Below are positions 23,832-28,294 of a stretch of 48,623 nt of DNA, piece by piece. Made by a program: the position numbers and the translations under genes. Source of the stretch: a virus; IMG/VR virus record IMGVR_UViG_3300020576_004942; one strand, written 5' to 3'. The notes under the pieces are model-generated. The model did no database searches and was not told the DNA's origin. It saw only the letters and a program-made list of their open reading frames with translations. Every line of letters begins with the position of its first letter. Position 1 is the first letter of the stretch.

Positions 23832-23860
23832 TTGACCTTTTATAAAAGTAGGGTATAATA
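23832..23860 (+). promoter_or_regulatory. sigma70-like promoter (core motif TTGACCTTTTATAAAAGT)
   Basis: TTGACC (23832-37), 17 nt, TATAAT (23855-60). ATG lies 5 nt downstream, so the transcript is leaderless or nearly so. Confidence 0.5.
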
Positions 23861-23865
23861 TATCA

Positions 23866-26073
23866 ATGACTCGAATAATTTACACTTACGACACCGAAAC
23901 CTATTTCAGTAAGGGGTGGCTTAAAGTGGGGGATACCGGTCGAGATGTTATTACCCGTATCGAAGAACAGGTAACTGCGGCCGTTCCGGAGCAATTACGA
24001 GTCCGTTCCACTCATGAAATCGACGAAAAATACCGAGATTATCAAATTCACAACATTCTCGAAAATCGATTGGGTAAACGGAGGATTTACAAACCGGCCA
24101 CAAAAGTAATCATTGATGAGGCGAAAGCAGCCGGAATCCCAATTAAACAAGGAAAAGTTGCGACTGAGTGGTTTGTCTGTACTCCAGCCGATGTAGCTTC
24201 CTCAGTCAATATCCTAAATCACGGAGTAGCAAGGCCGCATAGTTGGTCAATGCGACCGGAGCAGAATGAATTTGTCACTAAGGCATATAGCTATTTTCAA
24301 GCCGGTGGTAATCGCTTTCTGGGTAATTGTAAATGTCGGTTTGGTAAAACGTTTGCCACCTACAATCTAATGAAAAAGTTGGGGGCGAAGACGGTTCTGA
24401 TTCTCACCTTTAAACCCGCGGTGGGTGGTGAATGGGAATCCAATCTCAACGAACATATCTTTTTTGACGATTATGTTTTTCACCACGCATTAAATTTTGA
24501 TAAGAATAATCCAATTAAATTGACAGGCAAAAACGTGGATTTATTTGCCTCATTTCAAGATATTCTTGGCAAAAATTGTAATGGTAATCCGAAACAAAAA
24601 TGGAATTACGTTTTGGAATTCATAAAGAAAAATGGTATTGATCTATTGGTTATTGATGAGGCGCATTTCGGAGCGGACAAAAAGCGGGCGCAGGAACTAA
24701 TCGACAGTCTCAATTACAAGTGGCGACTCGATCTGAGCGGAACTCCGCTTGATTTGTTGATGAGTGGGCAATATACCGATACCAATACTTATAATTTTTC
24801 GTATGTTGATGAACGTAAGTTACGTGCGGCTGATATCAAGACCAATGGCGACAAGAGTTGTTATTACTGGCTGCCCGAATTAAATCTATATCGCCTGGAA
24901 TTGGGTCAACAGGTCATCAATGATAGTGATGCTTATTCTCCGGAAGAAGGTCTGCGCCTGAACAAGTTTTTTGCTTCAGACGATGGAAAGGAATTTATCA
25001 ATAAATCCGCACTTATTAAGTGGTTGGATTTGCTCGCCGCCTGCGACTTCAAAATTTGGGCCTCACCTTTTAATGACAATACCTTGGCGGGAAAATTAGA
25101 TCATATATTCTGGATTCTACCGGATGTAAACAGTTGTCGTGCGATGTTGCGTTTACTCCGCTCGCACCGTTATTTTAAAGAATTTCGAATTGTCCCAGCG
25201 TTTGACGATAATGATGGGGAGGGGCGGGACACCGTCCGTTTGGTCAAGGACGCAATTCGGGACCACGCCAAGACGATTACGTTGTCCTGTGGGAAACTTA
25301 ACACCGGCGTCACGATCAAGGAATGGTCGGCGGTCTTTTATCTCTCTGACACAGTGGCTCCGGAGACGTATTGGCAGACCATTTTCCGTTGTCAATCAGA
25401 GTGTCCAGAACTGAATAAACAGGAGTGTTTTGTATTCGACTTCAATCCTAACCGCACGTTGAAAATGATTTATGAATACTGTGAGACATTAGCGAAGAAA
25501 GGTCAATCTACTCAAGCTGCGATTCGTGAGTTTTTAGACACTGTAAAGGTTTTGTCCTATGACTCCAATCGGTTAGTCAAGATGAGTAATAGCGACTTGG
25601 AGAAAATCATCGAAAGTACGATTGATGTCGCAAAAGCCGCGCGGCGGTTTGAATCGGTCACGCAAGTCGCCGGAGGGAATATCAGCGCAGAGACACTCAA
25701 TTCCACTGCGCACTTAACTCCAGCCAGGGGTGGCAAGGTGGGGGATATTGAATTTCCAAAAAGCCCATTGAAATCCGGAAAGGTATTTGTAAAACCAGAT
25801 GGTAATAAAAATGGAAAACAAGTTGATGCGACCAAAGTGGTTATTCTCCGGTTGGTAACGATCCTAAAAGCCTTACCAACCTTCCTGTTTTTATCCCAAC
25901 AAGCAGAAGAATCGATTGATGATATCATCAATACCTCGGAAACGGATTTGTTTGAAACTATTACAACTATTAAAGTAAGTGATTTGAAACGAATGGTTGA
26001 AGAAGGTTCCATTATCAAAGAACGGGTTGATCGCTCCATTCAAGCTCTGACATTAGCTCAAAAACGAAAATAA
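23866..26073 (+). CDS. T5orf172 (GIY-YIG-like) domain fused to SF2 DEAH helicase/ATPase (restriction Res-like)
   Basis: N-terminal IIYTYDTETYFSKGWLKVGDTGRDVITRIEEQ...EWF matches the T5orf172 pattern. Walker A is GNCKCRFGKT and the DEAH box is VIDEAHF. Confidence 0.6.
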   Translation: MTRIIYTYDTETYFSKGWLKVGDTGRDVITRIEEQVTAAVPEQLRVRSTHEIDEKYRDYQIHNILENRLGKRRIYKPATKVIIDEAKAAGIPIKQGKVATEWFVCTPADVASSVNILNHGVARPHSWSMRPEQNEFVTKAYSYFQAGGNRFLGNCKCRFGKTFATYNLMKKLGAKTVLILTFKPAVGGEWESNLNEHIFFDDYVFHHALNFDKNNPIKLTGKNVDLFASFQDILGKNCNGNPKQKWNYVLEFIKKNGIDLLVIDEAHFGADKKRAQELIDSLNYKWRLDLSGTPLDLLMSGQYTDTNTYNFSYVDERKLRAADIKTNGDKSCYYWLPELNLYRLELGQQVINDSDAYSPEEGLRLNKFFASDDGKEFINKSALIKWLDLLAACDFKIWASPFNDNTLAGKLDHIFWILPDVNSCRAMLRLLRSHRYFKEFRIVPAFDDNDGEGRDTVRLVKDAIRDHAKTITLSCGKLNTGVTIKEWSAVFYLSDTVAPETYWQTIFRCQSECPELNKQECFVFDFNPNRTLKMIYEYCETLAKKGQSTQAAIREFLDTVKVLSYDSNRLVKMSNSDLEKIIESTIDVAKAARRFESVTQVAGGNISAETLNSTAHLTPARGGKVGDIEFPKSPLKSGKVFVKPDGNKNGKQVDATKVVILRLVTILKALPTFLFLSQQAEESIDDIINTSETDLFETITTIKVSDLKRMVEEGSIIKERVDRSIQALTLAQKRK

Positions 26074-27310: not shown

Positions 27311-27783
27311 TCGTAGTCTCAATTATAATATCTATATTATCCCTGATAGTATCTCTAACATCCCTATGTATAGGATTATACAACAGATTAACGATCTCTA
27401 ATAATTTAAAAATAAAATCATATTTATCTCAAATAAAAACTCATTTTTGTGAAATTGATAATATAAACTATGGTAGGATTGTAATGAAAGATTGCCATTG
27501 CGATTCTCTTAAAGATTTTGACAGACTGCGTTGCGTCGGTTCACAAATTTATTCGGAATCATCTAAAGAAGTGCGAGCATACCTAGACGATCTAACATCA
27601 GAATTAAATGATTTTTGTAATAAAATGAGAAATACCACAGGGGCATTCCAATGGGATTGTAGCAAAATTAAAAAACTCGTCTGTGATATAGAAAAAGAAA
27701 TTTTAATGGAAGATGAAATATCCGATGGTATCCGTTCCGGAATAAAAAAACTCATTAAAAATCTTTACTATGACGGAAAATAA
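27307..27783 (+). CDS. N-terminally anchored membrane protein, Cys-rich, in AT-rich island
   Basis: TM helix IVVSIIISILSLIVSLTSLCIGL. Local GC is visibly lower than the flanks. Confidence 0.45.
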   Translation: MIVVSIIISILSLIVSLTSLCIGLYNRLTISNNLKIKSYLSQIKTHFCEIDNINYGRIVMKDCHCDSLKDFDRLRCVGSQIYSESSKEVRAYLDDLTSELNDFCNKMRNTTGAFQWDCSKIKKLVCDIEKEILMEDEISDGIRSGIKKLIKNLYYDGK

Positions 27784-28294
27784 ACGGAAACACACCCCCG
27801 AAAAGATCAAGCAGAACGGTGAGGTATTCACACCAGAACCTCTAGTCAATCAAATGCTCGATAAACTCCCGCAAGGAGAGCTATTAGATCCTCTGAAAAT
27901 AATCGGTGATATAAGTGGTTGCGGTAATGGCAATTTCCTATTCAACATTTTGGAACGGAGAATAGCTGCTGGTATTTCGCATAAAAATGCTCTCCAGACA
28001 TTATATGGCGTGGACATAGACGAAACCAATGTCTTTGAGTGTAAACAACGCCTTGCGTTAGGTAGTCGGGATACGAATATCTGGAAAATACTAGATCGCA
28101 ACATCATTTGTGCGGATGCGCTGAACAAGAGTCATCCCGGTTGGAGAAAAGTTGGTTATATGTGGGACCCGTTGGGTAATCCCGCAGAACATTTCAAACT
28201 CGAAAATATAAAAGACCTGCCATTTGTCAAACGCTCCAGACCGAAGAAAAAGCCGGTGGTGGTTGAAGACTCTCCATTTTCAACAAAAGCTTGA
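27770..28294 (+). CDS. truncated/degenerate N6-adenine methyltransferase-like protein (motifs X, I, II only; no NPPY)
   Basis: GEVFTPEPLVNQMLDKL, IGDISGCGNGNFL and LYGVDIDE, with no catalytic NPPY. Confidence 0.5.
   Translation: MTENKRKHTPEKIKQNGEVFTPEPLVNQMLDKLPQGELLDPLKIIGDISGCGNGNFLFNILERRIAAGISHKNALQTLYGVDIDETNVFECKQRLALGSRDTNIWKILDRNIICADALNKSHPGWRKVGYMWDPLGNPAEHFKLENIKDLPFVKRSRPKKKPVVVEDSPFSTKA

Follow-up and report, generated by a model that had tools for sequence, protein, structure and literature searches.

Genomic context and organization of the cassette

We analysed a 48,623-nucleotide (nt) stretch of viral DNA, IMG/VR record IMGVR_UViG_3300020576_004942 (the window, by which we mean this whole stretch), and describe here a four-gene cassette at positions 23866-28294. 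The cassette encodes a predicted nuclease-translocase (H), a predicted adenine methyltransferase (M), a small membrane protein (X) and a short methylase-like protein (S). An original prediction for this DNA had placed four genes at this locus, and all four open reading frames (ORFs) were found at those coordinates on the plus strand, with a gap of 1 nt between H and M and overlaps of 4 nt (M/X) and 14 nt (X/S). The window has a GC content of 43% and is part of a large T4-like phage, encoding rIIA, rIIB, RNA ligase, NAMPT, an NMNAT/NUDIX protein, NADAR and a GIY-YIG homing endonuclease. A 125.5-kb metagenomic contig is recorded as carrying the same H protein. A nucleotide search of the cassette and of both window halves against GenBank phages returned no match; the phage has no close sequenced relative. 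The features of the cassette are as follows (dsDNA, double-stranded DNA; aa, amino acids).

23832-23859, plus strand: promoter-like site upstream of H (TTGACC-16-TATAAT; 11/12 match to the sigma-70 consensus)
23866-26073, plus strand: H, predicted nuclease-translocase, 735 aa (T5orf172 domain, SF2 motor and helical C-terminal region)
23875-24207, plus strand: T5orf172/GIY-YIG-type predicted nuclease domain of H, aa 4-114 (Pfam, invariant columns)
24247-25500, plus strand: SF2 ATPase/dsDNA-translocase core of H, aa ~128-545 (GKT 160-162, DEAH 264-267, SGTP 291-294, Q..FR 504-508)
26075-27310, plus strand: M, predicted gamma-class N6-adenine methyltransferase, 411 aa (Pfam Eco57I, N6_Mtase)
26780-27130, plus strand: hypervariable C-terminal segment of M, aa ~236-352, probable target-recognition domain (column entropy)
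27307-27783, plus strand: X, lineage-specific accessory between M and S, 158 aa (AT-rich, Cys-rich, one N-terminal membrane helix)
27770-28294, plus strand: S, half-methylase, 174 aa (motifs X, I, II and III; core aa 16-120)
28291-28318, plus strand: next copy of the phage promoter motif (TTGACA-16-GATAAT with TG; 11/12 match)

The promoter proposed at 23832 proved to be one member of a family with an extended spacer in common, TTGACATTTTATAAAAGT-N4-(T/G)A(T/C)AAT, that occurs five times in the window (6175, 23832, 28291, 31184 and 38432) against 0.52 sites expected by chance, on the plus strand in every case. One copy of the family precedes rIIA. The copy at 28291 lies directly past the S stop codon and is the downstream boundary of the cassette. 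Because two copies of the phage's promoter family bracket the cassette, we consider it a discrete unit that is wired into the phage's own transcription programme. The -10 element at 23832 ends 6 nt ahead of the H start codon, so that the H mRNA would be nearly leaderless, provided that this promoter is used. At two or more sites of the family the -10 element ends only 6-9 nt from a start codon, and nearly leaderless transcripts are expected there.

A predicted nuclease joined to an ATPase motor

The reading of H as a T5orf172/GIY-YIG-like N-terminal domain joined to a DEAH SF2 ATPase, with no PD-(D/E)xK nuclease, agrees with both Pfam and the motifs. Full-length H matches ResIII (E 1.4e-9) and gives a borderline score to T5orf172 (PF10544; 20.4 bits versus a cutoff of 20). 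The match is clear when the N-terminal domain is searched in isolation (26.3 bits), and the model is matched by 17/18 members of the H family (best E 1e-11). Residues Y6, K20, G22, R31 and E101, which are invariant in this domain, are all present in the window protein, and the predicted structure of the domain has a beta-beta-alpha-beta-alpha topology. Across 30 homologs, those of the phage clade included, the nuclease-domain residues and the GKT, DExH, SGTP and Q..FR motifs of the motor are invariant. No PD-(D/E)xK domain was detected in H, nor was a nuclease motif found in its C-terminus, which is helical in the predicted structure. The motor is structurally similar to that of LlaBIII and is the sole HsdR-like part of the cassette. 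T5orf172 has been listed as a nuclease module of predicted restriction-modification (R-M) systems (PMC4738411, PMC7251935).

The PHROGs families nearest to H are labelled 'DNA helicase', and NCBIfam holds no model for H, X or S. Single-sequence searches of PDB sequences with H, M and S gave nothing useful, and a profile of the H N-terminal domain found no solved relative among PDB sequences.

A methylase with non-canonical motifs and a variable recognition domain

M matches the Pfam models Eco57I (E 3e-13) and N6_Mtase. Its motifs X and I precede NPPY (residues 144-147), which is followed by a variable C-terminal domain, as in the gamma class, and the earlier assignment of M to the gamma-class N6-adenine methyltransferases, with motifs X, I and NPPY, stands on both grounds. 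The motifs of the window protein include DPTCKSGIFL, YGYAIS and GNPPY, and those expected to bind S-adenosylmethionine (AdoMet) are non-canonical, with K61 in motif I and A100 in motif II. Across 140 M proteins, NPPY is kept in 92-95%, a lysine occupies the position of the first motif I glycine in 86%, and the acidic residue of motif II is found in just 5%. Profile alignments to PglX and CamA, which are active and solved, confirm that the motif positions of M and S are the AdoMet-contacting ones. Column entropy in these relatives reaches 2.5-3.05 bits at aa ~236-352 of M, compared with 0.9-1.9 bits in the catalytic part, which is probably the signature of a diversifying target-recognition domain (TRD).

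S is a conserved half-methylase

S had been described as a short methylase-like protein that keeps motifs X, I and II and lacks NPPY. This description is borne out, and motif III is also present; the motifs read GEVFTP, D47..GCGNGNFL, YGVD and CADAL. There is no catalytic motif IV, the Pfam match corresponds to the N-terminal part of N6_Mtase, and the protein ends in a unique basic tail of ~40 aa. The structural model (residues 20-115, predicted local distance difference test score >90) contains the motif-X helix and strands 1-3 of the methylase fold only. Its best Foldseek matches are the N-terminal halves of CamA, PglX/BrxX, HsdM, BsaXI, LlaBIII and MmeI, and in a profile search the AdoMet-binding half of CamA was matched by S (E 1.2e-7) and not by M.

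Conservation is high among 125 S proteins: 94-99% for motif X (GEVFT), 100% for both glycines of motif I, 97% for the acidic residue of motif II and 95% for motif III (G(D/N)AL). Motif IV, sought as (N/D/S)PP(Y/F/W/H), occurs in 0/125. The degeneracy of the motifs in S and M thus appears complementary. The view that S is an obligatory AdoMet-binding or AdoMet-sensing subunit is supported by these sequence comparisons, whereas a role as the trans-complementing half of a split methylase would be plausible but unproven.

Alignment of the two methylases, suggested earlier as a check for a truncated paralog, gave 40% identity over 48 residues only, so S and M are not recent paralogs. There are 58 close phage-type homologs of S, and these are equally short. 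We also considered that S might be an N-terminal fragment with its C-terminal half encoded downstream, and rejected this idea: a further promoter copy begins right at the end of S, no methylase match was obtained for the ORFs beyond it, and the S proteins of relatives end at the same place.

Distribution, fusions and mobility of the H-M-S triad

An H profile was used to collect 80 loci from viruses and 80 from genomes. We scored the neighbouring genes with hidden Markov models built from seed proteins, restricting the triad counts to loci with flanks of at least 2.6 kb on both sides. H, M and S were all present in 46/50 genome (bacterial or archaeal) loci, 36/47 IMG/VR viral loci and 7/7 seed loci (8/8 seed loci irrespective of flank); loci without the full triad are mostly truncated contigs or divergent subfamilies. 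In the window the three genes are likewise clustered on one strand, at 23866-28294. The family extends over many bacterial phyla and some archaea, with at least 463 confirmed matches among GTDB species genomes.

In 111 bacterial-type loci the genes run S-M-H; the phage clade has H-M-S or (H+M)-S. The three closest phage-like loci are H-M-S and lack X, and in two loci S follows an H+M fusion. Fusions of H and M have arisen independently (P0003, P0025, L018 and proteins of 1355-1368 aa of the kind represented by the PADLOC model PDLC03626), and in the fused relatives nuclease, motor, methylase and TRD follow one another exactly as they do in Type ISP enzymes. The cultured Synechococcus phages S-CAM7 and MA01 have distantly related H+M fusions together with an S-like gene. 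S has a gene of its own in all triad loci examined, including those with fused H and M. Phage-clade proteins are shorter than the bacterial ones: H has 707-807 aa versus ~845 or more, M 377-445 versus ~500-550 and S 128-183 versus ~217-250.

Several loci lie in mobile contexts. In a Sphingobium island, S-M-H adjoins an integrase and a RelE/HTH pair. Plasmid-encoded H proteins from Sphingopyxis, Rhizobium, Burkholderia, Deinococcus and Corynebacterium are 71-89% identical, and this similarity across phyla points to recent horizontal transfer. At the Rhizobium plasmid locus, the names given by PGAP are 'N-6 DNA methylase', 'Eco57I restriction-modification methylase domain-containing protein' and 'GIY-YIG nuclease family protein'.

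The near-universal co-occurrence of the genes, the H+M fusions, the island and plasmid contexts and the hypervariable recognition domain together identify the helicase and methylase as an R-M-type pair, as the original prediction had held. We therefore consider it probable, though well short of certain, that the cassette is a phage-borne, streamlined member of an H-M-S family of ATP-dependent R-M systems, with a domain logic like that of Type ISP and Type I enzymes and a two-part methylase.

H might instead be a helicase-nuclease of phage replication, recombination or repair, with M and S as orphan methylases that are adjacent by chance. For T5orf172 proteins of jumbo phages, a part in recombination or in the resolution of Holliday junctions has indeed been proposed (PMC7824862), and the label of the nearest PHROGs families would suit such a role. 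Yet the co-occurrence of the triad, the fusions, the mobility and the PGAP and PADLOC labels rule out a replication helicase beside an orphan Dam enzyme, and we regard this explanation as very improbable.

The mobility of the family also bears on the idea that the cassette is a selfish hitch-hiker, that is, an addictive mobile R-M element that persists by the logic of post-segregational killing or by mobility and brings the phage no benefit. The recent cross-phylum plasmid transfer is in favour of this idea, as are the varied positions of the module in related phages (beside rIIB/RNA ligase, thymidylate synthase/DNA ligase or phosphoribosyl pyrophosphate synthetase) and the unrelated cargo, of 0.6-2.8 kb, that occupies the M-H junction in 18/46 bacterial S-M-H loci. 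However, the phage clade is old and diversified, and its own gene order, its consistently shortened proteins and its use of the phage's promoter motif fit long-term domestication better than recent invasion. We rate the hitch-hiker explanation as unlikely, and retain a domesticated R-M system as the favoured reading.

Examples of the cargo are found at L029 4951-5952, L117 4912-5961, L112 2058-3996 and L148 4722-5951, and the operon seems to be an insertion hotspot. A gene in the ~1-kb gap between M and H was considered as a fourth component of the system and rejected, as the bacterial inserts are heterogeneous and unrelated.

S-like domains and NPPY modules in other phages

Half-methylase domains resembling S also occur without an H homolog in two cultured T4-like phages. 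In Aeromonas phage 65, p301 (L177 3134-4294) is a protein of 386 aa, annotated as hypothetical, with NPPY at residue 13, an S-like domain at residues 288-381 and an uncharacterised middle region of ~270 aa between them; this order of parts makes it a circularly permuted methylase fusion. In Prochlorococcus phage P-SSM2, genes 036/037 (L178 3391-4351) encode a 193-aa protein that has only the NPPY part and, just after it, an S-like protein.

Related modules lie within two triad loci. Between the H+M fusion and S, L018 carries two ORFs in tandem (6191-8085) and L091 one ORF (9500-10249) with NPPY and a variable, TRD-like region. These ORFs start ~20 residues before NPPY and have a variable middle of their own and no AdoMet-binding half, and the N- and C-terminal ends of the two L018 copies are conserved between them. 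They could be alternative specificity modules with which S works in trans, or cassettes through which recombination switches specificity. Taken over phage 65, P-SSM2, L018 and L091, the arrangement of the sequences indicates a functional link between S-type halves and NPPY/TRD modules.

These observations help to decide how S itself should be viewed. The original prediction had offered two possibilities, a specificity or regulatory subunit and a decaying duplicate, and we find the former to be close to right. A functionless, decaying methylase duplicate would account for the loss of motifs IV-VIII and of the TRD, and for the full-length methylase nearby. Against it, S is kept as a separate gene beside M and H from archaea to phages, including loci with an H+M fusion; conservation of its AdoMet motifs reaches 95-100% and its 58 close homologs are equally short; its similarity to M is confined to those 48 residues; and in phage 65 it is fused to an NPPY module. 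Its conservation thus refutes decay as an explanation of S.

X is a lineage-specific membrane accessory

X was anticipated as an AT-rich gene for a membrane protein, which agrees with its GC content of 29.6% (23.9% at third codon positions, versus 43% for the window) and its single strongly hydrophobic N-terminal segment (KD19 2.6). It contains 8 Cys and has no family match in Pfam, PADLOC, PHROGs or NCBIfam. X was not present at the other triad loci first examined, and a search of 1.84 billion representative proteins yielded one true relative, at L173. This relative is likewise flanked by the C-terminus of an M, with 40% identity to the window M, and by an S (61% identical); it is 36-40% identical to the window X, and its N-terminal helix is conserved. 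The notion that X is a one-off insertion was dropped once this relative turned up in the same M-X-S position. The membrane protein cannot be counted as a cassette component in general, being absent from all but one other lineage, and from its sequence and distribution X appears to be a fast-evolving, lineage-specific, membrane-anchored accessory.

At L173, S is followed (1420-2659) by a NUMOD3 endonuclease-like gene and an ORF called RtcB-like by eye only. The window itself encodes a GIY-YIG homing endonuclease (phrog_314/7168) at 40041-40793 on the plus strand, and mobile endonucleases are common around H-M-S cassettes.

Proposed mechanism

From the observed gene structure, domain identities, motif conservation, triad co-occurrence, fusions and structural affinities, we infer methylation, ATP-driven translocation, cleavage, an M-S complex and the biological targets of the system. 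In the proposed mechanism, M would find a short, asymmetric DNA target through its variable C-terminal domain and, with S, methylate an adenine, marking phage DNA as self. S would supply or sense AdoMet for M, whose own AdoMet motifs are non-canonical. At an unmethylated target the complex would load H, the Snf2/HsdR-like motor of which may pull dsDNA at the expense of ATP, and the N-terminal T5orf172 (GIY-YIG-type) domain would cut the DNA, probably away from the site. Packaged phage DNA would be pre-methylated, and the likely targets would be the unmethylated host chromosome, co-infecting phages, satellites and plasmids. This is the logic of restriction that is blocked by modification, and the earlier term 'modification-dependent' is wrong for it.

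We tentatively extend this scheme, at somewhat less than even confidence, to a specific model of the two-part methylase. S would be the AdoMet half and M would provide the NPPY loop and target recognition, its own AdoMet pocket having decayed. S would then be a shared, trans-acting subunit that may serve several NPPY/TRD modules, as at L018, and may make restriction by H conditional on AdoMet or on the state of methylation. Such systems would be living intermediates in the circular permutation of methyltransferases, and a lytic phage would deploy one as an offensive nuclease against the DNA of its host or of rivals.

Several points weigh against the R-M interpretation or against parts of it. 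Members of a distant clade (L072-L074) have an M with canonical AdoMet motifs and still keep the small partner, so S may do more than supply an AdoMet site, or something other than that. M retains a complete, if non-canonical, N-terminal half, and a docking place for S is not evident. By sequence, H appears to have no PDB relative beyond its motor, and the T5orf172 domain could be a DNA-binding module instead of a nuclease. Cutting unmethylated DNA is risky for a lytic phage that is replicating its own genome, since self-cleavage would have to be avoided. Our literature search found no description of this triad, of a conserved truncated methylase subunit or of the biochemistry of the family. 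Finally, the DnmA-YeeB-YeeC system of B. subtilis, which has the same predicted activities (see below), showed no restriction or phage defence (PMC9973331), although an effect on phage sensitivity in Vibrio is reported, as cited in that paper.

A different use of the cassette would be counter-defence by methylation only, in which M, with or without S, methylates phage DNA against hosts that have S-M-H or other restriction enzymes, and H is a passenger or has another role. Bacterial S-M-H is very common in the sampled phyla, so that the phage would be protected by a methylase that matches it. Methylases unaccompanied by a nuclease are common in phages, cultured T4-like phages have S-like and NPPY modules without H, and the genes around the cassette include counter-defence-like ones (NAMPT/NMNAT and NADAR). 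Yet H is full-length, and all its nuclease and ATPase motifs are invariant in ~20 homologs of the phage clade that have diverged to 32-55% identity, a pattern that speaks for selection on the activity of H in phages. Moreover, H directly follows the promoter and its translation is coupled to that of M, and a protective phage methylase would have to share the specificity of the host system, whereas the recognition domain is hypervariable. We think this explanation improbable, although it is the least so of the alternatives, and continue to favour an R-M system in which H is active.

Three points appear to be undescribed in the literature searched, namely the half-methylase subunit with degeneracy complementary to that of M, the shortened H-M-S clade of large lytic phages, and the accessory X. 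Among restriction-like gene sets that are still uncharacterised, the H-M-S module is one of the more abundant, with matches on plasmids and prophage-like contigs in addition to those in GTDB, and databases reduce it to 'Type IIG' or to generic helicase and methylase names. The conserved half-methylase provides a testable hypothesis on how the methylase of this module is built and controlled, and would help to annotate better the thousands of 'N-6 DNA methylase' fragments that resemble pseudogenes. If the interpretation is true, virulent T4-like phages with a complete motor-nuclease-methylase system would be an uncommon case of a full ATP-dependent restriction-like system in lytic phages. The phage-borne triad bears on host-DNA degradation, on competition between phages and on methylome-based host prediction, and the compact phage proteins (H of 735 aa, M of 411 aa and S of 174 aa) are convenient material for biochemistry and structural work.

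Other genes in the window

Two genes before H, with a 224-aa phosphoesterase gene between, an 852-aa ORF (20397-22955, plus strand) has two vault-type matches, one to the shoulder domain of Major Vault Protein (PF11978, E 6.8e-18) and one to a vault repeat (PF17795, E 8e-7). This ORF has no PHROG family, and its GC content (50.8%; 60.7% at third codon positions) is well above the window mean; it is an unusual gene for a phage. Further upstream, a run of NAD/ADP-ribose genes (16298-19894, plus strand) encodes a fusion of an NMNAT-like cytidyltransferase and NUDIX, NAMPT (phrog_448, E 6.5e-149), a NADAR-domain protein (E 7e-47) and a nucleoside 2-deoxyribosyltransferase-like ORF (below cutoff). 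We take this run to resemble the counter-defence sets with which phages reconstitute NAD+ and oppose ADP-ribosylation. Downstream of the cassette, a 147-aa ORF (33571-34014, plus strand) has a match to the region conserved in the opioid growth factor receptor family (PF04664 OGFr_N, E 1e-16), a domain rarely noted in phages.

Comparison with known systems

Profiling with PADLOC, one of the checks that had been proposed, returned generic models of R-M methylases and Type IIG enzymes together with weak PDC-S57 and mad2 matches, and no BREX, DISARM or other named system. The only strong match is to 'REase_MTase_IIG' (PDLC03626), a model of 1359 aa for a T5orf172-helicase-methylase fusion: the window H matches positions 24-298 (E 2e-31), a bacterial H matches 180-797 and a bacterial M 992-1359. 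Fused relatives are thus already classed in databases as putative R-M enzymes. The 'Type IIG' label overlooks the ATPase motor and rests on classification only, and S lies outside the model. Type IIG and IIL enzymes such as Eco57I and MmeI are ATP-independent and have no motor, whereas the window has an intact SF2 ATPase, and only its methylase matches Eco57I.

BREX- and DISARM-like logic, suggested in the original prediction, does not describe the cassette. BREX is characterized by PglX with PglZ, BrxC and BrxL, and DISARM by the DUF1998 helicase DrmA, DrmB and DrmC/DrmD/DrmE with a methylase. PglZ, BrxA/B/C/L and DrmA/B/C/D/E were found neither in the cassette, as searched with PADLOC, nor in the loci of relatives, and the four proteins have no Drm match in PADLOC. 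There are weak PglX matches, which cover only shared methylase motifs, and in the absence of the signature genes neither system is supported. The earlier likening to Type III holds only loosely. Type III enzymes (EcoP15I, and EcoP1I of phage P1) have a beta-class Mod with a central TRD that acts as a homodimer, and a Res with a C-terminal PD-(D/E)xK nuclease, whereas M is of the gamma class with a C-terminal TRD, the nuclease-type domain of H is N-terminal and of the GIY-YIG type, and the domain order is that of Type ISP. EcoP1I also differs in context: P1 is temperate and the system protects the lysogen, whereas the window phage is lytic. A cassette of BREX, DISARM or classical Type III kind is thus barely conceivable. 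In Type I systems, HsdS consists of two TRDs, HsdM has none and HsdR carries an N-terminal PD-(D/E)xK nuclease; here, in contrast, S is a half-methylase and M has its own variable domain.

The fused relatives share their domain order with Type ISP enzymes (LlaGI, LlaBIII), but the nuclease of the latter is of the Mrr/PD-(D/E)xK type, whereas that of the cassette is of the T5orf172/GIY-YIG type. Type ISP enzymes are also single polypeptides without a half-methylase subunit, whereas the window system is split into H and M and has a conserved S. Outside generic motifs, there is no detectable sequence similarity between Type ISP enzymes and the window proteins, and the structural similarity of the motor to LlaBIII is the one observation that bears on a Type ISP mode of translocation and head-on-collision cleavage.

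DnmA(YeeA)-YeeB-YeeC combines the same activities (an adenine methylase with its own TRD, an SF2 helicase and T5orf172) in a conserved operon and in defence-island-like contexts. It is set apart, by description, by having the helicase and T5orf172 on separate proteins, with T5orf172 at the C-terminus of YeeC, whereas H joins both. Its methylase is large and MmeI-like, with no half-methylase described, whereas M is an Eco57I-type protein of 411 aa. MmeI-like methylases flanked by a helicase and a GIY-YIG protein have been proposed to form a Type I-like R-M system with separate helicase and nuclease subunits (Morgan et al., PMC2731913).

The remaining comparison is with methyltransferases that are split or permuted. 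The known two-subunit enzymes M.AquI and M.EcoHK31I are C5 methylases. M keeps its own non-canonical N-terminal half and so the window pair is not a clean split, but S corresponds to the AdoMet-binding half of a methylase and the C-terminal part of M to the catalytic and TRD half, and p301 of Aeromonas phage 65 joins such parts in permuted order.

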